A stretch of 64,000 nt of DNA, from positions 32,798-96,797 of IMG/VR virus record IMGVR_UViG_3300034066_001346, one strand, 5' to 3'. The notes under the pieces were generated by a model that ran no database searches, was not told the DNA's origin, and worked only from the letters and a program-made list of their open reading frames with translations. A program made the translations under genes and the position numbers. Source of the stretch: a virus. This document shows positions 2,786-58,447 of this stretch, one piece after another (positions within the stretch are counted from its first letter, which is position 1; every line of letters starts with the position of its first letter).

Positions 2786-2947
2786 CTAGTCTACCTTCTT
2801 TTTATACCACTTTCCAGCATCCATATCTGGAACTGTTACCTGATTTTGATTTAATAACATTTCTATTGCTGTAAGTGCATACTCCATTTGGAATTGTGTA
2901 CGCAAAAGCTCCATCTCAAGGAGTCTTAGTCTTTCTGATTTTCTCAT
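2786..2947 (-). CDS. Small hypothetical protein (53 aa)
   Basis: Hand-translated MRKSERLRLLEMELLRTQFQMEY...GKWYKKKVD; TAATG coupling with the upstream gene. Confidence 0.6.
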   Translation of the reverse strand: MRKSERLRLLEMELLRTQFQMEYALTAIEMLLNQNQVTVPDMDAGKWYKKKVD

Positions 2948-3258
2948 TATTCCATATTCTCTCTATCAACTAATGTTGGTGCAGTAGCAATATTACCACA
3001 TGATGCACACAACATATCTAAGAAATAGGTAGCTATCTCATAGTTTTCAAAAACTGTCTTAACGTACCATATATTAGATCCACATACACATATGTGTGTT
3101 GGTGTACCTCGTAAATCTAATGCTGTTGGCTCTGGCTCTTCTTGTGCCAACTCTTCTTTATCAAATATCAAAACTTCATATTTATCTAAAAAGTTTCTAG
3201 CAGCAGATGCCGATACTAAGCTTAGTATTAGAATAGATAATCTATTAAGCATCTTCAT
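2947..3258 (-). CDS. Hypothetical protein, N-terminal hydrophobic segment plus Zn-ribbon
   Basis: CVCG...CASCG motif and hydrophobic N-terminus. Confidence 0.7.
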   Translation of the reverse strand: MKMLNRLSILILSLVSASAARNFLDKYEVLIFDKEELAQEEPEPTALDLRGTPTHICVCGSNIWYVKTVFENYEIATYFLDMLCASCGNIATAPTLVDRENME

Positions 3259-3273
3259 ATAATTAATTATACT

Positions 3274-3828
3274 CTAAACCTGAATATATGTAAAGGGTGG
3301 TGCTACTGACATTGAGAATTCTGACGCCGCTTCTAAAGCTAATTTTAATCTCATCTTGGGATTCTTTTGATTCTTTGTTGCATGAAGGGCTCCAAGGGCA
3401 AACATTCCGCCTGAGCCTTCAGCCATATAATTAACTACATTCTCACCAACATGGAAATCTTCATCTACAACAAAGATTCTTCCCTCTAGGCCTACTATAA
3501 AGATGCCACCAGTATCTTCATCTGTTCCGCCTATATCTCCAAAGCCGTGATCTTTAAATGCCGCTTTAACAGAATCAATAAACTTAGTTCTCATAAACTT
3601 ATCTAAGCCTGAGTTAGTCTTTGTTGGAGTATACTTTGGTGGTGTCCATGAGTATTGAAGGATCTGCCCCATGCGAAAGCTATCAGTAAATGCAATACCG
3701 TACTGTCCAACCTTAAAGCACTTTGGCTCTTTTCTAGACATCACCCATCCACTTTTATCATCAGATGCGGCATGGTCGGAACCCATGTAGACGGTTCCAT
3801 TTTGAGCTATAGCAACAATACAGGTCAT
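3274..3828 (-). CDS. HslV/proteasome-beta-like Ntn protease
   Basis: MTCIVA start (Thr1 nucleophile), GSD, K33-equivalent and GSGGMFALGAL motif. Confidence 0.85.
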   Translation of the reverse strand: MTCIVAIAQNGTVYMGSDHAASDDKSGWVMSRKEPKCFKVGQYGIAFTDSFRMGQILQYSWTPPKYTPTKTNSGLDKFMRTKFIDSVKAAFKDHGFGDIGGTDEDTGGIFIVGLEGRIFVVDEDFHVGENVVNYMAEGSGGMFALGALHATKNQKNPKMRLKLALEAASEFSMSVAPPFTYIQV

Positions 3829-9137: not shown

Positions 9138-9545
9138 CTACTTTTTTGATTTTGCTCTTGCCTTTGCTAAAGCATCAAAATCTTTAATCTTGGTATCTCC
9201 CATGTATCCCCAAGCATGTCCGTCTATAATCATTTGCTCATTAATAGACTTTTCTGATCCATCAAGAAACACCCAACCTAAAATTCTTCCATATTTTTCT
9301 GAAGAATCCATCTTTTCTGTTTTAATAACTACAGTCTTTGCTGAATCAATTGCATTTTTTAAATAGGACTTTGCTTCTAAGCCAAGCGCTTTCTCCATTT
9401 TATCTACAGTTCTGCTTTCTGGAGTATCAATTCCAGCTAACCTAACTCTTGAGCTAAATGAGATATCAAAACCCAAATCTATATCTACATCAATTGTATC
9501 TCCGTCTACAACCTTAGTAACTTTTTTTACATAGTATTCAAACAT
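9138..9545 (-). CDS. Thermonuclease (SNase-like) nuclease
   Basis: VVDGDT, RVRLAGIDTPE and KYGRILG motifs. Confidence 0.92.
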   Translation of the reverse strand: MFEYYVKKVTKVVDGDTIDVDIDLGFDISFSSRVRLAGIDTPESRTVDKMEKALGLEAKSYLKNAIDSAKTVVIKTEKMDSSEKYGRILGWVFLDGSEKSINEQMIIDGHAWGYMGDTKIKDFDALAKARAKSKK

Positions 9546-10159
9546 TACTTTGTTGCTGCTGGCTTTCCGCCGCCACCCTTTGCTGGCTTTGCTGGTGCTG
9601 CCTTTTTAGAAACTGGCTTATCCGTCTTTGGCTTAACTGCTTGACCAAATGTTGGGCGTCCAAATCCTACAATAAATACTGGTTGGCTCTTGCGAAGCTT
9701 TGACCCATTCTTCTTCTTATATGCACGATTCTTAAGGCATGCTTGTCCGCCATTTCTCTGATCTCCCTTTTTATCTGGACTAGTATTTCCTTCTGCAACA
9801 TCAACTGTTCCATCTGCATTAACTGCAGTAACAATTCCTACATGAGAAATTCTATCGACACCATCGTTTGGAAAATCAAAATACGCTATATCTCCAACTG
9901 CTGGTGTTGCTGTATCTACTGGCTGCCAGGTGCCTGCTTTAATAAATGCTTGTGCACCTGCTGGAGTGTAGACTGTATTAGGCATCTTTACCCCAGCCTC
10001 ATTTGCACACCACATTATATAACTTCCGCACCATGGTTGGAAGTTGGACTTTGTAAACTTACCATACTTTGTCTCGTTATCTTTTGGACCTTCAATGTAT
10101 CCAATTTCTGCCAACGCTACTTCTACTAATCTTGCTGCTGATCCTTGTACTGCTGCCAT
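9545..10159 (-). CDS. CHAP-domain peptidoglycan hydrolase (putative endolysin)
   Basis: PWCG, SHVGIV and EGNT catalytic motifs; Lys/Ala/Pro-rich tail. Confidence 0.88.
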   Translation of the reverse strand: MAAVQGSAARLVEVALAEIGYIEGPKDNETKYGKFTKSNFQPWCGSYIMWCANEAGVKMPNTVYTPAGAQAFIKAGTWQPVDTATPAVGDIAYFDFPNDGVDRISHVGIVTAVNADGTVDVAEGNTSPDKKGDQRNGGQACLKNRAYKKKNGSKLRKSQPVFIVGFGRPTFGQAVKPKTDKPVSKKAAPAKPAKGGGGKPAATK

Positions 10160-11691: not shown

Positions 11692-11710
11692 AGCCCCCTC
11701 ATTTATTAAG

Positions 11711-11783
11711 TGCCCTTGGCAGGAGTCGAACCTGCGGCCAGTCGGGTAGAAACCGAATGCTCTGTCCTCTGAGCTACAAAGGC
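11711..11783 (-). tRNA. tRNA-Arg(TCT)
   Basis: Acceptor stem GCCTTTG/CAAGGGC, anticodon loop TT-TCT-AC, T-loop GTTCGAC; no encoded CCA. Confidence 0.92.
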
Positions 11784-29952: not shown

Positions 29953-29972
29953 TTCCGCCGTTTTCTATTATG

Positions 29973-30045
29973 TACCAAAGGTGGGATTCGAACCCACGCT
30001 GTATAGATTTTAAGTCTACCGCCTCTACCGCTGGGCTACTCTGGC
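29973..30045 (-). tRNA. tRNA-Leu(TAA), short variable arm
   Basis: Acceptor stem GCCAGAG/CTTTGGT plus discriminator A, anticodon loop CT-TAA-AA, T-loop GTTCGAA; 73 nt. Confidence 0.9.
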
Positions 30046-32034: not shown

Positions 32035-33259
32035 TTTGGAAAGGATTCTCATAAATCTCTTTGATGATACCTCTGTTGATATCCCAATCTAAGAAGACAT
32101 TAAAGTCTTGTCCATGTCTATTTTTTCGGCTAACCACTTCAACCATATTTGTATTAGTGTATTTGTGAATTGCAATAGCCATATCTGCATCATACTCAAT
32201 GGCTTTAGACCATGCAACCTGAGACAGCATTGGAGGGGCATCTTGATCTGTAATGTCATCCATTGTTGCTGCTGTAATATCAATAACTGGAATTCCATTT
32301 GTCATTGCTAACATTTTAAACTCACGAGATATGTTCATATTACGTTCTGTTGCACCTGAGCTACGCTTTGTGTCTGAGAACAACTGATGATAGTCAAGGA
32401 TTACTAGGTCTGGTTTATGTTGATCTATTTTTGCCTGAACTGTATTTGCGCTTACATCAGACATTCCTTCGCTTGACACCAACACAAAACCATTTTTGTT
32501 TTCAAACTTTTTAGATCCCCAAGACTTGAGGTCATCTATATTAACATCTCCCTTTGCAAAATCGCTTGCACGGAATAAACCTGAACCCATCATTGTATAG
32601 ATACGGTTACGCATATCTTCTGGGGACATTTCAAGAGAAACAATCATTGGCTTGAATCCTTGCTCCCAAGCCTTGCATGCAAGGTAGGAAGTAAACCAAG
32701 TCTTACCACGCCCTGGCCAACCAATAGCAACAATTAAATGCCCTGGAGCCATTCCAGTAGGATAAGCTTTATCAATTGCATCGAATCCAGTTAAGATTCC
32801 AGGACTGCCACCCATTGCTGCAGAACGCTCTTTTACTGAAGCAAAGTGTGTGGCTGCGGACTCAAGGTCTGTGACATCTAAATCTCTTACGTTATTAGTA
32901 AATTTAGAAAGCTGAGATAGCTTTGCCTGCATATCAGCGATAACTCTACCTGCTGCATCTTCCTTTAAGGCCGACCCAGATTGAATTAATATGCTTTTAA
33001 GTCTGCTACTTAAATATTCATTCTTAAGTTTATCTAAATAATATCCTGTTTCAGCCTTTGTATTGACTGGCTCAAAGTCTTTAAATCTTTCTGACAGGAT
33101 ACCTACTTCTGGAACAGCCTTGAACTTATAATAGTATGACTTTAAAGATTCCCAGATATCTCTGTGTGATGTAAATATCTCATCTACGTTATCTGCTAGT
33201 AATGTACTAATGTCTTTATTCTTACATACTGCGGAGATTACTTCTGCTTCTGTATTCAT
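32015..33259 (-). CDS. dnaB: DnaB-like replicative helicase
   Basis: GWPGRGKT, SLEM, ILDY, IEYDAD and KNRHG. Confidence 0.93.
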   Translation of the reverse strand: MNTEAEVISAVCKNKDISTLLADNVDEIFTSHRDIWESLKSYYYKFKAVPEVGILSERFKDFEPVNTKAETGYYLDKLKNEYLSSRLKSILIQSGSALKEDAAGRVIADMQAKLSQLSKFTNNVRDLDVTDLESAATHFASVKERSAAMGGSPGILTGFDAIDKAYPTGMAPGHLIVAIGWPGRGKTWFTSYLACKAWEQGFKPMIVSLEMSPEDMRNRIYTMMGSGLFRASDFAKGDVNIDDLKSWGSKKFENKNGFVLVSSEGMSDVSANTVQAKIDQHKPDLVILDYHQLFSDTKRSSGATERNMNISREFKMLAMTNGIPVIDITAATMDDITDQDAPPMLSQVAWSKAIEYDADMAIAIHKYTNTNMVEVVSRKNRHGQDFNVFLDWDINRGIIKEIYENPFQNDSQKN

Positions 33260-46745: not shown

Positions 46746-47213
46746 TTAAACCTCTTCCAGAGATAAAGACACATTCCAATGAGGTTGTATACCACGCTTT
46801 ACAATTGTAAAAGTTGCTTCTGTACATGAAACATTATATTCTTCATAACCAGATGACTCTTGGCTTGTTCCAGTCTTTGCCATATTTACTCTTATTTTAA
46901 AGGTTCCCGTTCCGCCATTTTTATAAAATTCTCTTAAATCTTCTGCTCCCCATGCACCATCAACGGTTAAAGTTCTATATGAAGGAAGCATTTCCCAACT
47001 TAGATTAAATGATTTCTTATCTGCAACATGGTACTTTCTTAAAGTACCATTTGACATTCTTCTTTTAGATTCAATTCTTTGTGTTCCAATTGTAAATTCT
47101 GATCTATTGTGCTCTGTAACTTTGTTCCAAGCTAATGAAGTTCCAGCTGGAGTTGCTAATAAATCTTTAGCTTCAATTAATAATATTGAGCCTCTTGGCA
47201 TCATCATGCTCAT
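46746..47213 (-). CDS. Distal tail protein-like
   Basis: Immediately after the TMP; RRMSNGTLR...WNVSLSLEEV. Confidence 0.65.
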   Translation of the reverse strand: MSMMMPRGSILLIEAKDLLATPAGTSLAWNKVTEHNRSEFTIGTQRIESKRRMSNGTLRKYHVADKKSFNLSWEMLPSYRTLTVDGAWGAEDLREFYKNGGTGTFKIRVNMAKTGTSQESSGYEEYNVSCTEATFTIVKRGIQPHWNVSLSLEEV

Positions 47214-50200
47214 ACTGTAATTCCTCCACCAGTCATGCTCTGTCTTCTTGCTCCACGGGCATCCATTATATTAACTATATGGTTTGCAAGCTCTTTAACA
47301 TCTTGTCCCTGTGCGCCATTAACAACAATTCCTCCAGCATTATAGTGGTGAATTGATCCACCTTTATTATACCCTGGAACTTGATTGCTAGCAATACCTA
47401 CCGTGCTTGTTGGAATGTTATATGTAGGAGAAGCCATTCCTCCGTTGGCAAATCCTGGTATAGACATTTTTGGATTAAATGAGGTGTTTACAATTCCCCC
47501 ATTGGCAAATTTAGGAATTTGTATTTTGCCATTGTTAACAAATCCCCCGCCTGCTGCTTCTTCCACATTTTTTAGCTGTTCTTTGATATCAGAAATTATT
47601 GACATAAAATCTTTTTCAGATAAAGCTCCCCTAGCATATAGACCTACAGCTGATTTTTGAACTGCTAAAAGATCTTTTTCATCTGCATAAGTTTTTCCAC
47701 TTGTATATTTGCCAAAACGTGTAAACATTAAAAGTGCGCCTAAAGCTTTTTGCGTATCACTTATTCCAACACCTATATCTCCTGTTTGAGCTCTTTGTGC
47801 ATTTAAAATATATTCAAATGGGTTGTGTCCTGAGCCATGAGCTAAGTTGTCTATGTCGCTAGCATTATGTCCGCCATCAAACCTGACTCCAAGATTCGCA
47901 GCCATTTCTGCTATCTCTTCTTTGTTTAAAGAGCTAAATTCTCCTCTAACGGCATACCTGTATTTTTCATCTATTCCAATTTGTTTCTTTGCTTTATCTA
48001 TTGCTAGTATTTGCAAAATTCTTGAAGCGCTTAAATACTCATCAGATTCATAATTGCTTCGTGCTGGCATGTAAAATTCTTCTGAGTGACTACCTCCCAT
48101 AGCATTGTCTGTACGTGCTATAGGTTTTAAATTACCATTTTCGTTAACTGCTTGTAATATTTGAGCAAGCTCTGATTGAGAATATTTTTCTTTTGCTAAA
48201 TAAAATATTTCTTTTGCTGAAAAATCTTCTGCAATTATTGGAGGTTCTTCTCCATCTTTATACAAATTAAGTTCTTTTAATTTTGCTATATAATCAGATT
48301 CTTCAAGTGGAAAGCCTGAGCTTAGCTCTCCTTCTTTTTTACTGTAGTGAAAAGGCTTTCCAAATCTTTGCAAGAAATAACTGTCTACTGAATGAAGCTG
48401 TTCTGGTTTTCCATTGTACTTCATTAAATTAGAAAGTGTGCTTACTATAAATGGTCTATCTGGCTTCCATTCACCCTGCATATGTGACTGAACTGCGTCA
48501 TAAATTCCAAAGTGTCTTGATGTTCTAGCTGCGGCTAATTGTTCTAGAGTGCCGACAGTTCCTTCAGGGAGGCCTTTTGGACCAAAAAATCTAGAAAGTA
48601 TGTGGGTCGCTGCATCTTTTTCAAAAAGATCTCCCTTGCCATCTGTTGATGGGAAATCGTCATTAAATATTCTTATCATAGGAATATCTCTTGGTGTTAA
48701 AGGAGTGTAAGAAGGATCCCAGCCTCTTGCTTTCAGGTCTGCAATTTCTTTTTTAGTTAAAGGCTTTTCTCCACGCACCCCATGCAAGCCACCTCTTGGG
48801 CCGCCTTGTCGTGCAATATTGGCAGCTACCGCTTCTTGTTGTAGTCTGACATTTTCTATATATTCCTGAACCATTTTTGTAAGTAGTGGTGAAATTGCTT
48901 TTGTTTTAGTTTTAATAGCAACATCATCTCTTGTATTGCCACGCATTGCAGAAATTAATTGTGCAAGCCCTGCTGGATCTAGTGACTCTGAAAGCTCTGG
49001 CCTTCTAAGGCCAAAAAGATGTGGGGATGCTAAATCTTGTGGATCAACCTTTTTTAAATTTATGCTACCTGATGCTAGCATATTCATTAAAAATTCTTTT
49101 ACTTCTCTATCGCCCCATTGGTATCCTGAATCCATTTTATCTAATAATCTTCTAGCTTTTGTATGGTTTGGATCTTTTTTCAAAATATAGGATAGGATTC
49201 CTTCTGGTGTTGTAGGAATAATATCAGTTACCTGATGGCTTGCTAATAATGAGCTTAAATTTTCAGTACGACCTTGAAAAACAACTGCGTCATTTCCAAA
49301 ACCGCTTCCTGAATGCACTGGTACATTTTTCCCTTCATGAATTACAAATGGCGGGTAAACGTTATTTGGCTTAAAATCATCTGAAGAAATTTTTACTTGT
49401 GGTTTTTGAATCATTGAAGATATTTTATTTTCGGCAAATGGTCTTGATGCGCCGATGATTGCTGCAGTTATAGCATTAGATGTAAATTTTGGAACTGCTG
49501 ATGTTGCATATGGTATAGAACCCTTTGGAAGAAGAGAGCCTAATCCAGGAAGTCCTTTTGACAATCCATATCCTTCAGCTAGTCCTCTTATCGAAGCGTT
49601 TCCAGCTGCTGCTGGCAATAAGAATGAACCAAAATCTAATCCAACTTGTGCAGCAATTTCTGGAAGTACAGACTTAACTCCTTGTTGTTTTATTTTTTCT
49701 TGTTGTGATTTTAATCCTTCTATGTTTGTAGAAGCAATTGGGTTTGTACCAGTAAAGGCTGCTTGTACTCTGTCTAAAGATAATATTGCTGGAAATAAAA
49801 AGTTGTCATAAATTTTTTGAGCAACAGATTTTGGAGCTTTATAATTACTTGCCATGTGTCCAGCAGGCAAACGTCTGCGGCCTGATCTTCTACCTGATGA
49901 AGATTCCATTTTTTGTTTTAGGGCAGCTGATACAGAGCCCATTGATGACATTCCTAAACTATGTGGGGCGCCTGAATGAGTATGTCCTACTGGTCCGCCA
50001 GCATGGAACATTAGCGGTCCTAAACCGTAAGCACCATTGCCAATGCCACCCGTAGAGGCGCCAGAGCCTGCAAGACGCATAGGGTCTCTGTCTATGCCCA
50101 TTCCTGGGCTTGCAAATGGCTTGCGTGGCTGCTCAAGCATCTGATGCATGTAGTCTGAATGCTGTGGGACCGAACCGCTAAATTTAAGTCCTGGTATTTC

Positions 50201-53200
50201 TGTTCCGCCCCAAATATCCATGCCTGGGCTGCGTGGCCCAATAAATCTTGAAAGTTCTCCCCAATATTGACCGAAAGGATTACCTATAGGTCTTCCAGAT
50301 CTAGAGTAAGGAACACCTGGCTTTCTTTGTCTTGGTACTGTTAGTGGCCCCTTAATCCAATTTCCAGAATCAGTTAAGCTGTTTACAACTTTTCCACCTT
50401 CTGCAAACTTCTTTATGTTTACCTTTGTGCCTGCAAAAATTCTTGACCCGCCCATATATTTTGGATCATTTAGCTGTGGATTCATTTCCATTAATTGCTT
50501 GACGCTAATACCATACTTTGCAGCAATTGCAGATAATGTATCTCCTCTGCCTACTGTGTATCTATCATTTTCATAATCTGACTTAGCATCATCTGCGCTG
50601 TAATATTCTGGTGTGCCATATCCATACTTAATAGTATCTACTGGCTTATATGAAGGTCTTCCAAATCCTACAACTGGAGCATTCTTCATATTGTATTGTC
50701 TTACTTTTGCATGTACTCCGCCGCCGCTTCTTTGACTTCCAGAACCTGATGTATTTCCTTCTATAGTTGAAACTGCATTGCTACTTAAAACATTTCTTAC
50801 TAACCCTACGTGAGAAATTCTATTAACGCCATCTCCTGGGAAATCCATGAAAGCTAGATCTCCACGCTTTGGATTCATCTTTGTCCACTTGCCACTCTTC
50901 ATAAATGACTGAGCTCCACCAGGAGTCCAAATCATGCTTGCTAAATCTACCCCAGCATTTTTTGCTGCCCAATTTATGAATGCTCCGCACCATGCTATGT
51001 ATCTGCTCTGCAGATCATAAGCCTTTTGTGCAAATCTACCAAATATAGTGTCGTTGTTCTTTCCTTCTTTATATCCAAGCATAGACTCAGCTGCTTTAAT
51101 CATTGAGTCTACTGTGCCTAGAGTGCTTTCTTTTCCGCCTCTCATCTTACTTACTTTTCCGCCATTTGCAAATCTACCAGCATTTAAATCATGAAGGAAT
51201 GATGGACCAAATTCTTTTTCAGCTTTTTTAACTGAGTCTGCTTTTATTACCCACTCACCGTCTGAAAGCATTGCAGGAATTGAATCAGATGTTGAAGTTC
51301 CTGGACCACTTACATTTCCTCCGCCATCATAATTAGTTGCATAGCCGCCCATAGCAAGTTTTCGGGCTCTTGATGGGAATATCTTTGCATCATATCCAGA
51401 CTCAACAACATATTTAACTCCATCAACTTCAAAATATTTACCCTTTTGATATTTATTTGTATTAATAATATATGTCAGCCCTGCTTTAGTTATTGTTCCA
51501 TCTTTAGACTTTAGTGGTGCTGCTTCTGCGGCAGTTGTTCCCCCTGGTGCAACTTTAGGAAGAGTTGCGGCGTTAACCTTAAATGGATCCTCTTTTGTTC
51601 CACTTCCAGTTCCTGATGTCGCTCCAGCAAATTTATCTACTGCAAGAATAAACTTATCTACAGCTGATGCAAATGCTACATTTTTATTATCATTTACTGC
51701 CTTTGCTAAAGCCTGTGCAAGCTGAAGTTCTGGAGACATAGCAACTGGCTTGCCACCAGCTTGTGAAGGAGGCTGGTTAATTGCAGGATAGTTGCTAAGC
51801 ATTTCATCTGCAGCTTTTTTAATTGATCCGCCAGCTTCTCTCATTTCATTAAAGATTTGAATTAGAAGCTTTTCGTCTGACTTAGAGAAGTTGCCCCCTG
51901 GATTTCTTGTTACAATATCATTTATTCTTGCTCTAAAGTCAGCAATAGTGGCAAGGTCTGCAGACTTTTTAGCAGCTGCTGAGCCTGCTGTGGCGTTATT
52001 GTCTGCTGCATCATCTATTATTTTTTGCAATCTTTCAATTTCTTTATTTTGTTGCTCAATGCGCTTTTCATAATCATTTGTAATTGATTCTCTTGTAATC
52101 TGTCTTTGTCTATCTTCTTGCAATTTCTTTATGTTAAGTTGAGATTGAGCAGCAGCAGCAAGATCACCAGCAGCCAAGAACTCCTGATATCTTATCTGCT
52201 CTTCCTTTAAAGATTTAGCAAAGTCGGCTTCAGCCTGCTGAACATCCAAAAGCTTTAATCTAGTATTTCTTTCTTTTTCTAACTGATTTATAACCTTCTG
52301 GATTGACTTTATTTTATCCTTGTAATAATCGGCATCAAACTTTGCAGCAGCCTTTTGAGCCTTAATTGCATTTTCAGAGGCTTTCTTTGCTGCATCATAA
52401 AGTTTTGCTAAAGCAGAGAGGGGGTTATTTGAATCTGTTGATGAAGTTACTTCATTTAAAGCACCTTGGTATGCAGCAAGTTGTCTGGCAAATTCTACAG
52501 CTTCCTTTCCAGTCATAGCTGCAATATTTATTTTATCTGCTAAACCAGCTGCGTATATCGCTGTTTTTGCATAAATACTTTGAAGGGTTTCTCCATTTTT
52601 TAATATAGTTGCATAAACTAAATTTTGTTGTTTAAGACCATCTAAAGTCTTTTTATCTATTTCATTTGTTGCGCCTTTTATTTTTCCTATTTCATCCAGG
52701 GTCTGCTTAAGTGCATCAGCTTCTGTTAATTCTGTTTTACCATCTTCTCCGCCTTTTGATCCAACCAAAGAATCTTGGTAGGTAGAAAGAACATTAATCA
52801 TATTCTCTACACCAGTATTTAGCTCTTCTAAGAATCCCTTACTTGTGCTACCGTTCATTGCTACTATTGCATTTGAAACCATTTTAACTGATGCTGCGGC
52901 AGCAGATGCTCTGTCTGTAATTTGTTTAAATGAATCAGAAGATATTGCTGAAACTGACTGACCTGATTTATTTGATGCAGCAATTAAAGCATAAATTTTA
53001 TTTGTTGCTTGTTGCACAGACATTCCCATAGATACATATTGAGACTTAAGCGATGTAGCTAATTGATTAACCTTAGATGAATCTATATTATTAAACGCTG
53101 CTAAAGTTTCTGGCATTTCTTTTTTAACTCTAGCAGTTTCTTCTCTTAATTCTTTAATTGTAAAAGTTAATCCACTTATACCAGTTTTTGTATTTGAGTC

Positions 53201-56200
53201 ATACGATGCACTTGCTTTAGCACGCTGCAAATCTAGCTGAGCATTTATATCTTTTAATCTAGTAGATAGGTCTTTGTACTTTCCAGAAAGACCCGCCTCT
53301 CCTAAAGTTTTTTCATTAGCTCCAAATGCTAGTCTATTTGCCTTACCAGCATCTTCATACTTTTTCTTTAGATCTAATAATACTTTTCCTAAAGCTATTG
53401 CAGATGTTACTGCTAATCCAAACCCAGCAAACTTCATAACTTTTGATAATGTAAGTGTTCCTTTTATTAAAAATGGCAAAATTGATGCTACTTGTCCTAA
53501 CATAGAGCCAATCATAAAGCCCGTGTTTCCACCCATAGCTTGTCCAGCCACTCCTCCGCCAACTGCTGTTGCCATGCTAAATACTTGAGCTTTAGCTCCG
53601 TATGGATTTATCCCTGACGAACCTTTTGTTATTGGAGTCATTCCCATTTGAGTTGCTAAAGGGGTTTCGTATCCAGGCATAGTAGGAATAGCAGGAAGTC
53701 CATATCCTGTTCTGTTCTTAACAATATCTCCGCCTGGAATTATTCCGCCTGAATTTCTAGGAACAAATATTTCTGGTCCGTTTTCTCCAACAAGGTAAGG
53801 TCTGTTTGCATTAACTGGACCACCCATGGCACGTGTACCGTCAACAACTGTTTCTAATTTCAATGTTCCATTTTCATATCCAACTACTCTAAACTTTCCA
53901 CCAAAAATAGATTCTTGTTCGGATCTTGAGTTATGTCCAGCTACCTTTTGTCCAAATGGCGCTGAGAATTTTGCATCTGGGAATATGTCAGAAGCTGGAA
54001 CAACATTTCTATTTTTTACAGATGCCTCTATAAGTATTGATGACCCATCTGCGGATGCTCCGTGTCCTGGCGCAAATAGGGAAGCAATATCTCTATTTTT
54101 ACTCCATGATGAACGGCGCATAATAAATTCTTGACCAATAAGTCCAGATGGATCTCCACTTAATCTTGCCTGATCAATTGCCTCTATAATATTTTGAGGA
54201 AGAGGGTTTGCTCTATTTTTGCTTAGTTTTAATCCTCTATAAAGAGTTCCGCTAAACTTTCTAGACAACTTCTTCATTAATTCTGTAGCGCCTGGAGTCT
54301 GTAATATTCCATAGTTACCAGCCATGTATTGACGAAGTATATACTTCCCACGCTCTTCTTCAGATCCAATTGGGAACTGTCGCATAACATTTTGTCTTGC
54401 GAATCTATCGTCTTGATAAATTACTTCTCTTGTCCACTCATAATCATCTTGTCTATCTTTTGGAACCATGGTTCTACCAATTTGAAGTGGACCATGAAGT
54501 GGATCTTGATTTCCTAATGTGTATTGATACCCTGGCATTCTAAAGCGTTCTTGTGGCTTCCACCTTGCAGTTAATCTGGCAATTGCACTAGATGCTAATG
54601 ATGGAACTCCATAGCCGTATCTTCCTCTTTGTATATTGCCTCCTGGAATCATTCCTCCAAGATTTGCAGCAAACGGTGTGGCTGATGAATTTCTGGAGAA
54701 TCTGGTCATTGCTCCAATTTCTGCAGAGTTTACTAGTTGTCCCCACATGGCTTCATTCATTAAGCCATTTCTTCTTTCTACGAGAGCATTTAGTCTGCTA
54801 GCTGCGAGCTCTGCAACTTGTTGTGCTTGAGCCTCTGGAACACCAATATCTTTTAGTTTTCCTAAAAGACTTTGCATGTCTTGCCAGCCTACTTCTCTCC
54901 ATGAATCTTTCCAGCCTTTTCCATCTGAAGTTCTTGCTGGAGATCCGTCGCCCTTAATTCTTTGATTAAATTTTGAAGTGTTTTTTACCCATGTCGTTGA
55001 CAATGCAGTAAGTGTTGATAATTTACTGCCTTGAGGTACTGATACGCCTAAAGATCTTAATACTGATACTGGAATCTGATCTTCTGGACCGTACCCTAAA
55101 GATTCAAGTCTTCTTACAAATGCAGGAGGAAAAGCATGAACTAATACATCTCCCCTTTTTGTTGGAGTAATTCCATATCTCTTATTAGTCTCATCAGAAT
55201 AAATTGCACTAGATCTTGAACGTGCTGAAGAATATTGTATAGAACCTGATCCTGGCTCTGAAACAGATTGTGTATTAGAACCAGTTGTATCCCATCTATT
55301 TCTGCTAGCTCTCCAGTATCTTGTTCCTGGAGATCTACCTCCTCCTATCATGGAAGATCTAGCTAAATAGTTGGCGATTAAAGATGCTGGATTTAGACCG
55401 TAGTTCTTTTTATTTCTAGATACATCTCCACCGAATGCGTATCCATTATTAGCTGCGTCAACTGCAGCATACAGTTCTGGATCTCTATGTATACCTGGGC
55501 CAAAAATAGTTTCTTTTGGAGTTAGCATAGCCTTCATTGTAGATCCGCTATTACTAAATGTTGAAGGTGCAGCATCTACTAAATCTTTATTGCGTGGATC
55601 TAGCGAAGCTTGTTGATTTAAAACATATCCGTTTAACGGAACATTTCCAAACCTATCGTCATAGTTAATAGATGACGGACCTGATACTACTGTCTTATTT
55701 GGCCCAAAGCTCTCAATGTCTCCACCGACATTAAATCTTTTTGGTCTTGTTGTTTCAATACTATAAGGAGCACCATATGTTTTAACTCCAAGCACTCTGG
55801 CAATGGAATTAAATAATGTTCTTGTTCTTCCTGGACGAGTAAGCTCTTTCATGTTTGCCTTACCAGTAACAGGATCAAACGCTGGTTGGTCTACGAGGGG
55901 TAGCTGTGTTAAGTTTATTGTTCTTCCTTGTGCAGTAGCAACTTCTGTTGCTGCCTGCCCCATCATCATTTCAATCTGTCTATTTAAAGCAACAACTCTT
56001 GCTCTTGCTTGATCAACAGTTATTTTTGATGCTTGCAGCTGTGCAACAATTTCAGCAGATTCTGTTGCAGCTAAAGTTGTTATTCTTGACATTTGAGGAA
56101 GAAGGGCTTGATATGAATCTGATAATGAAGTTGTAATTAATCCAGTTGCTGCAACTTCACGCTTTAGTAAAGCAATTTCTGCTTCCGACTGCATTGCAAG

Positions 56201-58447
56201 TGCGCCAGTCATTGCGTGCCACTTTGCTGCTTCTCCTGCAACTATTCCAGTAGAAACACCCTTTATTGCAGATACTCCAGCAACCTTTGGCAGGTCTGAG
56301 CTCATGTACATCTGCGGATTATTGCTAATCGCATTGTTTACTTTAGGTGCTCCTGGAACAATTCCAAATATAGTCTGGGCTTCTCTTTCAGCTGGGGTCA
56401 TAGCTGAAACAGGATTTGGGTGAGAATAAGCTCTTGTATCCCTTGGAGAGATGTATCTACTTGTAGGATCTACTTCTCTTATAGCTGTGCCAGTCATAAC
56501 AACTTGACCAGCAACAGTTGAAATTGTAGGAGCTGCGCTTACGCCAGAATTTGCTCTTGCCTGCAATATTCTAAATTCTTCATTTAAGTTATGTAGTGCT
56601 GTAGATAAAACCGTAGCTGCTTTTGCATCACTATAGAATGTTGTTTCTAATAGGTTACCAGCTTTGTTGGCAGCTAAAATTTCTGGAGTTAATAATTTCC
56701 ATCCTTCTCCGCCTTTAAATAACGCTCTAAAGTGTGCAGCACCTTTAACAACATACCCAAGGAAGTTTGCAAGCACACCAGTTAACATAATTATTGGGCC
56801 AGTTAATGCTGTAAATCCTGCCGCAAATGTTAATAGTTTTTTGATTGGGTCTGGCAGCTTGTTAGCAAATTGAACTACCTTGTCGATAATATTTATAAAA
56901 AATGTTCCGATGTTTAAGAACTGCTCTCCTACTCCAGCTAAGCTGGCCTTTAAAGATTCTAGCGCTCTCTTATATTTACCAGATGCAGACTCTGTAATCT
57001 GAGTTAATTCTCGGTTAGCAATATTGGCTAAATCTTGTGTACTAGTTTTCATTAAGTCTAGTACTTGTAATGTCTGACTTCCTTCTTTACCTAAGTTTTC
57101 AAATAAGGCAGATAGTCTTGCAAACTGAAATTTTCCAAAAAGCTGCTCAATCGCCTTTGATTTACTTAATGGGTCAAGTTTGTCTAGAGCAGATTGAAGC
57201 TCTAACATCATTCCAGTTAAATTGCCAGCATTTGAAGTAACTATATTTTCAAGATCTATTCCAAATCCTTGGAACATTTCTTTAGCTACCTTGGTTGGGT
57301 TAATAAGGGATGCTAATGAGGACTTGATTGCATTTGCACCTTCAGATGCATTTACTCCGCCCTCTTTCATTGCAGTTAAATATAATGCTAAATCTTGGAC
57401 TGATCCGCCAAGACTTTGAATTACTGGTCCTGCTTTTGGAATCGCTTCTACTAAATCTGCAAGAGATGTGGATGTCTGGTTTTCAACTGCGTTTAAAAAG
57501 TTAATTGATTCAGAAAGTTCTGTTGTATTTTGCTTAAAAGCTGTCTGAATTGCAAGTGTGGCTTTCATTGCTTCTTGCCTATCAACTTCACCAAGTATGG
57601 AAAGTCTTGTAGTTTCTTGAGTTGATCTGATTAGATCATCTCCCTGCTTTCCTGTTGCAGCAATATCCGCAGCTAGTGCGATTGTTTCTTTGTAAGAAGC
57701 TCCGTAAGCAGCTGCTAATTCTCTTGCTGTGGCAGAAACTTCTTTTCTTACTTTTGCTAACTCTGTTGCAGAAGTTTGTGCTACCCCACCATAAACTTTT
57801 GTTAATCTTACAAGTTGCTCGTCTGCTTCTCTAAATGCTTTTGATGCAGCAATCCCAAAAGCTGTTATTGGTACGGTTAGTCCTACAGTTAACTGGCGTC
57901 CTGCCCACTGAGTATTTTTACCCCAGTTAATTAGTTGGACTCCGCCATCTTGAATAACTTTATTAAATATCTGCATCTCTTGCTTGAGAAGAGCTGTTCT
58001 ATTTTTAGTAGCATCCAGACCTCTTGGTATCTGAACGTTAAACTGCATTAAGCCTTCGGCATTTCTACCTAGGGGCTGAAGTATTGCATTTTGTAATTGA
58101 ACTTGCTGTCTTGCTAACTCCCTAATCATTCCACCAGAAGTTCTAGTGTGATCTTGGAATGTTCTATAGTAATCTTTAAGCTTAAGTCTTCCCTGATCTA
58201 AGTTTTTACCAAATTTTTCTACATCAGAAGAAAGACTTACGAAGTGGGTTGAGAACTGACCAGTGCTTCTAAGTGTTGCTGAAAAGCCTTGCTGTATCTT
58301 TGCTGCATCCATCGCAAGTGCTTTGTTCGTTGTTGCTAAAGCACCTTTTAATTGAGCGAGCTCTGCCGTAGCCTTTTGCACATTAGCAATAAGACTTGAG
58401 AAATTAGCATTAGCTACTATATTCGTAACTATTGTCTCATTGGCCAT
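47210..58447 (-). CDS. Tape measure protein with embedded ADP-ribosyltransferase, CHAP and LysM domains
   Basis: TP901-type TMP core in the N-terminal ~600 aa, downstream of the chaperones. ART motifs LYRG/SSWS/SEQE; CHAP WCG/SHVG/EGNT; LysM YTVGRGDTLSAIA. Confidence 0.92.
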   Translation of the reverse strand: MANETIVTNIVANANFSSLIANVQKATAELAQLKGALATTNKALAMDAAKIQQGFSATLRSTGQFSTHFVSLSSDVEKFGKNLDQGRLKLKDYYRTFQDHTRTSGGMIRELARQQVQLQNAILQPLGRNAEGLMQFNVQIPRGLDATKNRTALLKQEMQIFNKVIQDGGVQLINWGKNTQWAGRQLTVGLTVPITAFGIAASKAFREADEQLVRLTKVYGGVAQTSATELAKVRKEVSATARELAAAYGASYKETIALAADIAATGKQGDDLIRSTQETTRLSILGEVDRQEAMKATLAIQTAFKQNTTELSESINFLNAVENQTSTSLADLVEAIPKAGPVIQSLGGSVQDLALYLTAMKEGGVNASEGANAIKSSLASLINPTKVAKEMFQGFGIDLENIVTSNAGNLTGMMLELQSALDKLDPLSKSKAIEQLFGKFQFARLSALFENLGKEGSQTLQVLDLMKTSTQDLANIANRELTQITESASGKYKRALESLKASLAGVGEQFLNIGTFFINIIDKVVQFANKLPDPIKKLLTFAAGFTALTGPIIMLTGVLANFLGYVVKGAAHFRALFKGGEGWKLLTPEILAANKAGNLLETTFYSDAKAATVLSTALHNLNEEFRILQARANSGVSAAPTISTVAGQVVMTGTAIREVDPTSRYISPRDTRAYSHPNPVSAMTPAEREAQTIFGIVPGAPKVNNAISNNPQMYMSSDLPKVAGVSAIKGVSTGIVAGEAAKWHAMTGALAMQSEAEIALLKREVAATGLITTSLSDSYQALLPQMSRITTLAATESAEIVAQLQASKITVDQARARVVALNRQIEMMMGQAATEVATAQGRTINLTQLPLVDQPAFDPVTGKANMKELTRPGRTRTLFNSIARVLGVKTYGAPYSIETTRPKRFNVGGDIESFGPNKTVVSGPSSINYDDRFGNVPLNGYVLNQQASLDPRNKDLVDAAPSTFSNSGSTMKAMLTPKETIFGPGIHRDPELYAAVDAANNGYAFGGDVSRNKKNYGLNPASLIANYLARSSMIGGGRSPGTRYWRASRNRWDTTGSNTQSVSEPGSGSIQYSSARSRSSAIYSDETNKRYGITPTKRGDVLVHAFPPAFVRRLESLGYGPEDQIPVSVLRSLGVSVPQGSKLSTLTALSTTWVKNTSKFNQRIKGDGSPARTSDGKGWKDSWREVGWQDMQSLLGKLKDIGVPEAQAQQVAELAASRLNALVERRNGLMNEAMWGQLVNSAEIGAMTRFSRNSSATPFAANLGGMIPGGNIQRGRYGYGVPSLASSAIARLTARWKPQERFRMPGYQYTLGNQDPLHGPLQIGRTMVPKDRQDDYEWTREVIYQDDRFARQNVMRQFPIGSEEERGKYILRQYMAGNYGILQTPGATELMKKLSRKFSGTLYRGLKLSKNRANPLPQNIIEAIDQARLSGDPSGLIGQEFIMRRSSWSKNRDIASLFAPGHGASADGSSILIEASVKNRNVVPASDIFPDAKFSAPFGQKVAGHNSRSEQESIFGGKFRVVGYENGTLKLETVVDGTRAMGGPVNANRPYLVGENGPEIFVPRNSGGIIPGGDIVKNRTGYGLPAIPTMPGYETPLATQMGMTPITKGSSGINPYGAKAQVFSMATAVGGGVAGQAMGGNTGFMIGSMLGQVASILPFLIKGTLTLSKVMKFAGFGLAVTSAIALGKVLLDLKKKYEDAGKANRLAFGANEKTLGEAGLSGKYKDLSTRLKDINAQLDLQRAKASASYDSNTKTGISGLTFTIKELREETARVKKEMPETLAAFNNIDSSKVNQLATSLKSQYVSMGMSVQQATNKIYALIAASNKSGQSVSAISSDSFKQITDRASAAAASVKMVSNAIVAMNGSTSKGFLEELNTGVENMINVLSTYQDSLVGSKGGEDGKTELTEADALKQTLDEIGKIKGATNEIDKKTLDGLKQQNLVYATILKNGETLQSIYAKTAIYAAGLADKINIAAMTGKEAVEFARQLAAYQGALNEVTSSTDSNNPLSALAKLYDAAKKASENAIKAQKAAAKFDADYYKDKIKSIQKVINQLEKERNTRLKLLDVQQAEADFAKSLKEEQIRYQEFLAAGDLAAAAQSQLNIKKLQEDRQRQITRESITNDYEKRIEQQNKEIERLQKIIDDAADNNATAGSAAAKKSADLATIADFRARINDIVTRNPGGNFSKSDEKLLIQIFNEMREAGGSIKKAADEMLSNYPAINQPPSQAGGKPVAMSPELQLAQALAKAVNDNKNVAFASAVDKFILAVDKFAGATSGTGSGTKEDPFKVNAATLPKVAPGGTTAAEAAPLKSKDGTITKAGLTYIINTNKYQKGKYFEVDGVKYVVESGYDAKIFPSRARKLAMGGYATNYDGGGNVSGPGTSTSDSIPAMLSDGEWVIKADSVKKAEKEFGPSFLHDLNAGRFANGGKVSKMRGGKESTLGTVDSMIKAAESMLGYKEGKNNDTIFGRFAQKAYDLQSRYIAWCGAFINWAAKNAGVDLASMIWTPGGAQSFMKSGKWTKMNPKRGDLAFMDFPGDGVNRISHVGLVRNVLSSNAVSTIEGNTSGSGSQRSGGGVHAKVRQYNMKNAPVVGFGRPSYKPVDTIKYGYGTPEYYSADDAKSDYENDRYTVGRGDTLSAIAAKYGISVKQLMEMNPQLNDPKYMGGSRIFAGTKVNIKKFAEGGKVVNSLTDSGNWIKGPLTVPRQRKPGVPYSRSGRPIGNPFGQYWGELSRFIGPRSPGMDIWGGTEIPGLKFSGSVPQHSDYMHQMLEQPRKPFASPGMGIDRDPMRLAGSGASTGGIGNGAYGLGPLMFHAGGPVGHTHSGAPHSLGMSSMGSVSAALKQKMESSSGRRSGRRRLPAGHMASNYKAPKSVAQKIYDNFLFPAILSLDRVQAAFTGTNPIASTNIEGLKSQQEKIKQQGVKSVLPEIAAQVGLDFGSFLLPAAAGNASIRGLAEGYGLSKGLPGLGSLLPKGSIPYATSAVPKFTSNAITAAIIGASRPFAENKISSMIQKPQVKISSDDFKPNNVYPPFVIHEGKNVPVHSGSGFGNDAVVFQGRTENLSSLLASHQVTDIIPTTPEGILSYILKKDPNHTKARRLLDKMDSGYQWGDREVKEFLMNMLASGSINLKKVDPQDLASPHLFGLRRPELSESLDPAGLAQLISAMRGNTRDDVAIKTKTKAISPLLTKMVQEYIENVRLQQEAVAANIARQGGPRGGLHGVRGEKPLTKKEIADLKARGWDPSYTPLTPRDIPMIRIFNDDFPSTDGKGDLFEKDAATHILSRFFGPKGLPEGTVGTLEQLAAARTSRHFGIYDAVQSHMQGEWKPDRPFIVSTLSNLMKYNGKPEQLHSVDSYFLQRFGKPFHYSKKEGELSSGFPLEESDYIAKLKELNLYKDGEEPPIIAEDFSAKEIFYLAKEKYSQSELAQILQAVNENGNLKPIARTDNAMGGSHSEEFYMPARSNYESDEYLSASRILQILAIDKAKKQIGIDEKYRYAVRGEFSSLNKEEIAEMAANLGVRFDGGHNASDIDNLAHGSGHNPFEYILNAQRAQTGDIGVGISDTQKALGALLMFTRFGKYTSGKTYADEKDLLAVQKSAVGLYARGALSEKDFMSIISDIKEQLKNVEEAAGGGFVNNGKIQIPKFANGGIVNTSFNPKMSIPGFANGGMASPTYNIPTSTVGIASNQVPGYNKGGSIHHYNAGGIVVNGAQGQDVKELANHIVNIMDARGARRQSMTGGGITV

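Follow-up and report, generated by a model that had tools for sequence, protein, structure and literature searches.

The DNA analysed here, referred to below as the window, is a 64-kb stretch (64,000 nucleotides, positions 32,798 to 96,797 of IMG/VR record IMGVR_UViG_3300034066_001346) that forms the right-hand part of a 96.8-kb viral record of 81% estimated completeness. On its minus strand, an open reading frame (ORF) at 47210-58447 stays open over 3,745 codons plus stop and encodes a product of 402.5 kDa that, judged from its domains and its neighbourhood, is the tape measure protein (TMP) of an uncultured siphophage with a genome of about 100-120 kb. The reading we favor, at a probability of roughly 60%, is that this TMP is modular: a conserved core extended by modules that are fenced by a recurring Gly-Gly joint, with exchange of modules at the joints and cutting of the chain at some of them.

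A giant tape measure gene with recurring Gly-Gly joints

The PhageMin_Tail domain (PF10145) was found at amino acids (aa) 239-438 of the protein with 93.7 bits (cut-off 33.2, E 1.8e-26), and nine TMP families of the PHROGs database match aa 1 to ~835 (best E 3.6e-122). Downstream, the gene is followed by one for a minor tail protein of 1,119 aa (phrog_10359, E 2.1e-68); upstream of it are a head-tail adaptor, an Ig-domain protein and two small ORFs that take up the putative chaperone position. The protein database holds 1,186 relatives of 2,059-6,554 aa, many of them named TP901-family TMP by their source. These matches, the tail-gene neighbourhood, the giant relatives and an end element shared with TMPs of solved structure all point to the same identity. 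The closest cultured phages are Streptomyces phages of ~131 kb, with 32-36% identity over the first 600-680 aa only, and a megablast search of the 5′ part of the gene against 50,697 phage records gave no match. Since a 99%-identical protein of 3,745 aa occurs on three contigs, the ORF is not an assembly artefact, and its architecture is common to hundreds of relatives.

A short motif built around a Gly-Gly pair recurs along the protein. An earlier note on this DNA, made from the letters alone, had listed 14 copies, and all of them were found within ~10 nucleotides of where it placed them, beginning at aa 905, 1003, 1261, 1539, 2364, 2373, 2426, 2681, 2814, 3631, 3647, 3666, 3693, and 3702. Two copies beyond that list, IPGGNI (1266) and RNSGGIIPGGDI (1564), are part of the same joints. 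The strict form [FY]xxGGx[VI] is present nine times against 0.25 expected from composition-preserving shuffles (n = 5,000, maximum 4), a 36-fold excess. Among 142 relatives of at least 2,000 aa, the mean is 5.5 strict copies against 0.19 expected, and copy number increases with protein length (Spearman 0.55). In an unbiased tally of 3,676 distinct GG contexts, numbered from the first G, the preferred residues were Y, F or R at −3, A or N at −2, M at −1 and V or I at +3, and the consensus of the joint is [KRG]-[FYR]-[AN]-x-G-G-x-[VI]. Frequent extensions are K-x-N-Y-G or Y-x-V-G-E-x-G-P-E-x-F-V-P, and three long forms were seen in this TMP: GG-x-[IV]-x(3-5)-K-x-NYG at aa 1003, 1266, and 1569; RAMGGPV-x5-YLVGENGPEIFVPR-NSGGIIPGG at aa 1539-1573, a stretch that phrog_30701 also matches (aa 1537-1573); and LAMGG...YDGGGNVSGPGTSTSDSIPAMLSDGEWV...RFANGGKV at aa 2364-2432. 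The resulting division of the protein is given in Table 1.

Table 1 Joints, modules and core parts of the TMP, from N- to C-terminus, with their positions in the window
Feature	Residues (aa)	Window position	Strand	Evidence or remark
Whole TMP gene		47210-58447	(-)	3,745 codons plus stop
Conserved N-terminal TMP core	1-904	55736-58447	(-)	PF10145, PHROGs; 119-120 of 120 relatives
First hydrophobic hairpin	537-570	56738-56839	(-)	Hydrophobic segment scan
Joint FNVGGDI	905-911	55715-55735	(-)	Homology of 11 relatives and of a locus (L019) in a metagenome-assembled genome (MAG) stops here
Small module	912-1002	55442-55714	(-)	No Pfam match at E<=10
Joint YAFGGDVSRNKKNYGL	1003-1020	55388-55441	(-)	36+20 homology endpoints
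Slot-1 cassette	1021-1260	54668-55387	(-)	Most frequently exchanged; no Pfam match
Joint ANLGGMIPGGNIQRGRYGYGV	1261-1281	54605-54667	(-)	14+34 endpoints; homology restarts at GG
ADP-ribosyltransferase (ART) module	1282-1538	53834-54604	(-)	~80-aa leader, then predicted R-S-E ART fold
Predicted ART fold	1361-1535	53843-54367	(-)	AlphaFold2 model, Foldseek, VIA-align
Composite joint RAMGGPVNANRPYLVGENGPEIFVPRNSGGIIPGGDIVKNRTGYGLP	1539-1585	53693-53833	(-)	Counterpart of T5 pb2 cleavage site after R1563
Second hydrophobic hairpin	1643-1693	53369-53521	(-)	Kyte-Doolittle 19-aa means 1.7-1.8
Long helix-rich region	1694-2363	51359-53368	(-)	Helix formers abundant, Gly/Pro-poor
Canonical TMP end element	2364-2432	51152-51358	(-)	LAMGG, YDGGGNVSGPGTSTSDSIPAMLSDGEWV ... 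RFANGGKV; 60 endpoints at ~2430
CHAP + LysM cassette	2433-2680	50408-51151	(-)	Pfam, endolysin PHROGs
Joint FAEGGKV	2681-2687	50387-50407	(-)	Block boundary in P0030/P0031/P0015
Gly/Pro-rich 126-aa module	2688-2813	50009-50386	(-)	No Pfam match; varies independently of neighbours
Joint FHAGGPV	2814-2820	49988-50008	(-)	Homology of many relatives stops at 2818-2845
Large cargo, 89 kDa	2821-3630	47558-49987	(-)	No fold match
Five terminal joints (AAGGGFV, FANGGIV, FANGGMA, YNKGGSI, YNAGGIV) and C-terminal end piece	3631-3745	47213-47557	(-)	

The helix-rich region, which about all relatives have at an identity of only 25-75%, is likely the ruler part of the protein. At the terminal joints, homology restarts at aa 3636-3666 in 40 relatives, and this end is shared with minimal relatives of 2,380-2,507 aa. 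Each of the two hydrophobic hairpins is followed by a helix-rich stretch, an arrangement that looks like two TMP-like units in series. When ten TMP segments were searched separately against Pfam at E<=10, four known matches were the only ones obtained; sub-threshold matches to KIF21A_4th, Zincin_2, and RXLR_WY were taken as noise.

Exchange of modules at the joints among relatives

Exchange was analysed by BLASTP of the TMP against 120 relatives. The first ~1010 aa are covered by 119-120 of these, coverage falls to 24 over aa 1018-1261, returns to 94 over aa 1262-1540 and to nearly all 120 over aa 1700-2430, and then drops to 34 (aa 2433-2680), about 30 (aa 2681-2818), and 15 (aa 2821-3630) before it goes up again to ~41 over the last 80 aa. 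The steps lie at ~1017, 1262, 2432, 2818, and 3636-3666. Of the 483 internal alignment endpoints, 57% are no more than 15 aa from a listed motif, compared to 9.7% for random positions, and they cluster at ~911, 1017, 1262, 1535, 2365, 2432, 2676, 2818, and 3636-3666. The relatives share ancestry, so that their homology endpoints are non-independent, and four further checks were therefore made, on the identity of each block, on the cassette families of slot 1, on the DNA junctions and on insertions and deletions.

Identity was determined for the blocks 1-904, 912-1017, 1018-1261, 1262-1540, 1541-1600, 1601-1700, 1701-2363, 2364-2432, 2433-2680, 2681-2820, 2821-2948, 2949-3630, and 3631-3745. 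In relative P0004, the values in this order are 99, 97, 16, 95, 98, 63, 70, 88, 86, 64, 26, 18, and 83%, a jump from 99% to 16% and back to 95% within a single pair of proteins. Relative P0005 has the opposite distribution, with 78% identity in the core, 25% in the helix-rich region and 89-96% over the cargo at aa 2433-3630 (92-96% in the large cargo, aa 2821-3630). The small module at aa 912-1002 is replaced in P0005, P0008, and P0009, at 20-22% identity versus 78% in the core. The cassettes in slot 1, 132-336 aa long, belong to at least eight unrelated families, and the DNA of two relatives (L005 and L008) is ~85% identical up to the NYG codons of the joint, becomes random within a few bases and restarts exactly at the next GG. 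The sequence that follows joint 2426 varies from 42 to 1,619 aa among relatives. One of them, P0012 (2,507 aa), reads RFAMGG-ISGPSYTIP, in which joint 2426 supplies the left half and joint 3666 the right half; between these two joints, 1,233 aa have been cleanly inserted in this TMP or deleted in P0012. In P0013, an OmpA domain occupies the slot of CHAP-LysM, and in the MAG relative L019, homology is broken at its own joints 906 and 1222.

Among relatives, modules have thus been replaced, gained and lost through crossovers that lie at the joints or no more than ~20 aa away. This is the outcome that the earlier note had proposed to look for by aligning relatives, namely that segments between motifs are exchanged while their flanks are conserved; the contrary pattern of collinear relatives and of domains spanning the motifs was not seen in the relatives or in the structural models.

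Contents of the modules

The ART domain and the CHAP+LysM pair had each been described beforehand as bracketed by a pair of motifs, and both descriptions agree with the positions found. The predicted ART fold (aa 1361-1535) sits between joints 1261-1272 and 1539-1545 and stops 4 aa before RAMGG, and both wall domains lie between joints 2426-2432 and 2681-2687. An AlphaFold2 model of the ART module, built from a 13-sequence alignment, has a pLDDT (predicted local distance difference test) of 67.6, a moderate confidence. With this model, the top 50 Foldseek matches are all ARTs (best E 3.6e-5), the best being the R-S-E ARTs Vis, C2-I, HopU1, Tre1, Certhrax, and C3, and VIA-align gave Z 9.9 and a root mean square deviation of 3.2 Å over 137 aa, using model residues 92-266, with disordered flanks. 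Candidate catalytic residues R1404 (LYRG), S1447/S1449 (SSWS), and E1510/E1512 (EQES) do not vary across 13 sequences, the most distant of which is 41% identical. Atlas feature similarity also gives an ART lead for the module, as a lead only, whereas a profile of the module searched against PDB sequences found no ART and a single chance-level match to CptN (E 0.74). Fold and residues support the ART call made from the letters, and aa 1361-1535 are predicted to carry an R-S-E ART fold with intact catalytic residues.

The module resembles the known R-S-E ARTs (C3, iota Ia/CDTa, Vis, Certhrax, and Tre1, as well as Alt, ModA, and ModB of phage T4) in its fold, at Z 8.4-9.9, and in its ordered R, S-x-S, and E-x-E. 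Unlike them, it is without a sequence-level match in Pfam or PDB and has its homologues inside giant TMPs only. It stands at the same position in 94 of the 120 relatives, and a search of 1.84 billion representative proteins returned 44 clusters of homologues, nearly all giant TMPs. Like T4 Alt, the enzyme would most likely act early on in the infection, by ADP-ribosylating a host protein, either at the envelope or inside the cytoplasm. No earlier case of a TMP family with an embedded R-S-E ART was found in the searched literature. The leader of the module (aa 1282-1360, window 54368-54604 (-)), about 80 aa long, contains the invariant stretch GNQDPLHGPLQIG and has a pLDDT below 50 over much of its length. 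A 64-aa stretch of the ART module also gave eight matches, at 33% identity, to an unrelated protein of 4,210 aa (P0152) with MBG_2 repeats (E 3.8e-138); these probably reflect a shared short repeat motif and not an ART.

In the wall hydrolase cassette, CHAP (PF05257) was detected at aa 2484-2565 with 30.2 bits (cut-off 26), within endolysin PHROGs matches at 2445-2601, and LysM (PF01476) at aa 2630-2678 with 46.8 bits (cut-off 20.9, E 2.9e-12). A stand-alone 204-aa CHAP lysin is encoded in the same window (9545-10159 (-)) and is 41% identical to the CHAP of the TMP (E 4e-42), including the WCG and SHVG motifs, which suggests that the two are paralogous hydrolases for entry and exit.

The large cargo at aa 2821-3630 probably consists of two sub-blocks split near aa 2949-2991. 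An AlphaFold2 model of 681 aa (aa 2950-3630) has a pLDDT of 67.7, with a core of ~90, and a predicted template modelling score (pTM) of 0.67. Foldseek gave no match at E<=0.001 and the VIA-wide search only a trivial helical hairpin (Z 7.1); the model is oversized for a structure search, and the lack of a match is not readable as a new fold. No stand-alone homologue was found, both of the two matches being TMP fragments. Leads to HNH-type toxins were weak (Atlas scores <=0.78) and were not trusted. Residues R3308, H3312, H3322, W3327, D3355 (in the RTSRHFGIYDAVQSHMQGEWKP region), and H3527 (GGHNASD) are invariant in 14 sequences down to 25% identity and look like an enzyme active site. In both models, that of the ART module and that of the large cargo, the residues adjacent to the joints are disordered, so that no predicted domain spans a joint.

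Possible joint processing, competing explanations and known systems

The joint is not peculiar to this phage. The end element at aa 2364-2432 matches the TMP of mycobacteriophage Douge (PDB 8zdo, two copies, E 9.4e-12) and that of Pseudomonas phage JBD30 (8rk3, E 4e-4), in both of which that part of the structure is unresolved, and the element occurs once or twice in lambda gpH, T5 pb2, Douge gp16, and JBD30 gp46. These matches point to an ancestral TMP end element that was multiplied in the giant-TMP family. For JBD30, the authors of the structure predict that the homologous element anchors the TMP as a hook, and they speculate that the chain is cut directly behind it (8rk3).

Cleavage in T5 is what connects the joint to processing. 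As the tail matures, T5 pb2 is cut after R1127 into pb2* and pb2C (Linares et al. 2023, PMC10038345). The channel-forming region is thereby parted from a C-terminal fragment to which wall-degrading activity is credited, and this fragment stays in the tail and is the first to be expelled (PMC10038345). The sequence at this site is NSFVPR|AEGGMMYPG...YQMGEHGTEVVTP, the bar marking the cut. By BLASTP, T5 YLRGDKGIGNANSFVPRAEGGMM (pb2 1111-1133) aligns with YLVGENGPEIFVPRNSGGII (aa 1551-1570) at a pairwise E of 0.006, and the counterpart of FVPR|AEGG is FVPR-NSGG at aa 1560-1567. On this alignment, the joint coincides with the only mapped TMP cleavage site. T5 and this TMP share the joint, T5 YLRGDKGIGNANSFVPR|AEGGMM corresponding to YLVGENGPEIFVPR-NSGGII; the similarity is limited to it, and T5 has one joint and a 92-aa C-fragment, whereas this TMP has ~15 joints and ~1,450 aa of extra modules. 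Cutting has been measured in T5, while this TMP is known from sequence alone. As a side observation, aa 1111-1160 of pb2 (L011, NC_005859, 12122-15781 (-)) contain two tandem Y-x-x-G-[ED]-x-G...V-x-P units with the cut AEGG joint between them, and the T5 HGTE credited as a metallopeptidase signature occupies the position of a histidine-free VGENGPE in this TMP, so that it may be worth re-examining the T5 peptidase assignment.

According to a 2025 paper on lambda, no TMPs other than those of T5 and lambda are known to be cleaved; in lambda, where gpH is processed to gpH* and gpHC, ~14 kDa is cut from the glycine-rich C-terminal end of gpH, the exact site and the catalyst being unknown (PMC12617516). 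The end of gpH reads KFHFATGG...PAGIVHRGEFVF...RGYATGGYV, like the end element at aa 2364-2432, and the removed ~14 kDa come from that glycine-rich region (PMC12617516). A cut at F733|ATGG would yield 79.8 + 12.5 kDa; this fit in size at F733|A734 is a calculation, not a measurement, and lambda, unlike this TMP, has no enzyme module.

In the mechanism that we propose, aa 1-904, 1540-2432, and the last ~80 aa form a conserved core that would serve as ruler and channel; the modules, each folding on its own and fenced off by a short joint, would both interrupt and lengthen this core. Because T5 cuts pb2 at the joint, we infer that at least some joints would be cut in tail maturation, leaving in the lumen a train of polypeptides with the C-terminus first out. 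That some joints are cut in this way and the lumen holds separate polypeptides is a tentative analogy, which we put somewhat short of an even chance. TMP C-termini are located in the tail tip in structurally studied phages, so that release would begin with the end piece and run backwards along the chain, through the 89-kDa module, a 14-kDa module, the CHAP-LysM hydrolase and the membrane-inserting helical part, to which the hydrophobic hairpins 537-570 and 1643-1693 would belong, to the ART with the N-terminal core. If the chain is uncut, the same modules would be delivered tethered, as has been suggested for the TMP-RNA polymerase fusion of P23-45 (PMC10770324). A bolder version, which we consider doubtful, is that the joint would be a general processing code of siphophage TMPs, [FYR]|[AN]-x-G-G-x-[VI], cut two residues before GG by the TMP or a host factor, with the lambda site at F733|A734; giant TMPs would then be polyproteins that load an ordered train of effectors (wall hydrolase, 89-kDa and 28-kDa modules, ART) injected ahead of the DNA. 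By calculation, cuts of this kind would yield, among others, fragments of 30.9 kDa (aa 1262-1539, ART), 27.6 kDa (aa 2427-2681, CHAP-LysM), 14.1 kDa (aa 2682-2814), and 89.0 kDa (aa 2815-3631).

The most serious competing explanation, to which we give an appreciable though minor chance, is that the joints are never cut. They would be flexible or anchoring linkers, making contacts as a baseplate hook or with chaperone or tube, the 402-kDa chain would stay whole with its modules tethered, and exchange would occur at joints since in-frame junctions are tolerated there. The hook predicted for JBD30 fits this explanation, as do the rarity of known TMP cleavage, the absence of any reported processing in the paper on P23-45 gp96 (PMC10770324) and three features of the joints themselves. 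Minimal relatives that are free of cargo keep all the core joints, so that the joint has a function apart from releasing cargo. At the position before the putative cut, different residues occur (F, Y, L, R, A), a loose specificity for a protease. No nucleotide repeats were found at joints within the TMP gene, so that the idea of joints as nucleotide-level recombination sites within the gene was dropped and they are regarded as protein linkers under selection, not demonstrated recombination sites; at the protein level, they may be linkers where recombinants stay functional. Set against an uncut chain are the facts that the sole TMP with a mapped site is cut inside the joint motif and that lambda is cut in the region that holds FATGG, together with the difficulty, from general knowledge, of threading folded modules of 28-89 kDa, in three copies, through a narrow lumen as a single chain.

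The modular, partly cut TMP that we favor is also weakened by points beyond the features of the joints just given and the non-independence of endpoints. Its cleavage step depends on two precedents, a mapped site in T5 and an approximate one in lambda, and some breakpoints are off the joints, at ~1620-1690, 2140-2170, and 2930-2990. Two large cargo modules received no function from Pfam, Atlas or structure searches. The ART module matches no curated ART family (e.g., PF03496, PF26816) even at E<=10 in Pfam, so that it is an ART by fold and catalytic residues and not as a member of such a family, and its distribution among relatives marks it as a conserved family fixture rather than swapped cargo.

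That the segments are merely the fast-evolving parts of one collinear protein, with the motifs as slow islands where BLAST stops, is very unlikely. Endpoints must fall where conservation stops, so that some clustering at conserved islands is expected, and the region 1701-2363 does resemble graded divergence (25-75% identity). Divergence alone does not account for the observed patterns, however, because of the mosaic identities, which rise in one pair from 25% to 89-96% (P0005) as they fall and recover in another (P0004), because of the unrelated slot-1 families and their different lengths, because of the DNA junctions, where identity goes from ~85% to random within a few codons, and because of the joint-to-joint insertions and deletions; different Pfam domains in one slot (CHAP-LysM versus OmpA) and the widely varying length after joint 2426 contradict it as well. 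The chance that the motif count is a by-product of glycine-rich low complexity (glycine is 9.7% of residues, and GG pairs number 49 versus 35 expected), or of an assembly that fused genes, is negligible given the enrichment of the full motif over shuffles, the specific bias of its flanking positions, the near-identical protein on three contigs and the hundreds of relatives with this architecture.

For a modular TMP with joints that guide exchange and may be cut, several components are already published: muralytic TMP insertions, mosaic TMPs, processed TMPs (T5, lambda), and one fusion of a TMP with an enzyme (P23-45). No earlier work that connects one multiplied joint with module borders, with points of exchange and with the cut site of T5 was found in the searched literature. 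TMPs with wall domains and TMPs cut in maturation have been known so far as isolated cases only. In this TMP and its relatives, of which there are more than 1,000, module boundaries and crossover points fall together in one short motif with the sole mapped cleavage site, that of T5. Should the motif be cut, long tails would serve as containers of ordered, exchangeable protein cargo, including an ART otherwise undetectable by sequence, and might offer a natural scaffold by which chosen proteins could be delivered into bacteria. Should it stay uncut, no phage structural protein would illustrate linker-guided domain shuffling more clearly than this family.

The earlier note had gone further and inferred that the TMP is a polymorphic effector-delivery system. 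Module borders and exchange at the motifs bear this out in part; the effector part is overstated, as the ART is fixed and the recognisable swapped cargo is wall-acting. Polymorphic toxin systems combine a conserved delivery part, a demarcating motif and a variable C-terminal toxin with a cognate immunity gene; of these, a demarcating motif was observed in this family, along with variable cassettes. In 12 diverse relatives, the exchanged modules recognisable by Pfam are OmpA, CHAP, LysM, and NlpC/P60 only, which by their family assignments would be peptidoglycan and envelope tools, the classical role of TMP insertions. Pfam identified no toxin domain in the variable cassettes, either in the TMP segments or in those 12 relatives.

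Among other known systems, TMPs with wall domains (P1 Sit with SLT, PMC9024508; Douge gp16, 8zdo) share a muralytic or wall-binding insertion near the C-terminal end, and Douge gp16 also has two copies of a GGG-x-LSGPGT-x-SDS element; they carry one or two insertions, whereas this TMP has 6-7 modules, systematic joints and cassette exchange. Gp96 of Thermus phage P23-45, a 5,002-aa fusion of a TMP and a virion RNA polymerase (PMC10770324), is likewise a giant TMP that brings in an enzyme acting in the cytoplasm, but its enzyme is N-terminal, joints and exchange are undescribed, and it has no sequence relation to this TMP. Polyvalent proteins, which occur in phages and conjugative elements (Iyer et al. 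2017, PMC5512222), are similar as very large, virion-delivered multi-enzyme proteins in which ARTs are the commonest protein modifier. They differ in having H-Y-D ARTs and zincin processing peptidases and in being borne in the head rather than in the tail lumen (PMC5512222), and their description never mentions TMPs (PMC5512222). No processing peptidase of the polyvalent type was found in the TMP by the Pfam segment searches, in which the best match, Zincin_2 (E 0.28), is below threshold.

Two further scans of viral contigs with TMP alignments returned the same five loci again. The leads to the host are the G+C content of ~37%, the OmpA-type modules that relatives carry and the placement of two relatives in Bacteroidia bins. 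These two, L019 and L020 (JBBALJ010000003.1 and JBBALJ010000006.1), are on contigs of 78 and 68 kb in one Bacteroidia MAG and have TMP-core identities of 69% and 45%; they are a weak host lead and possibly mis-binned phage contigs. The window also encodes tRNA-Arg(TCT) and tRNA-Leu(TAA), at 11710-11783 and 29972-30045 (-).

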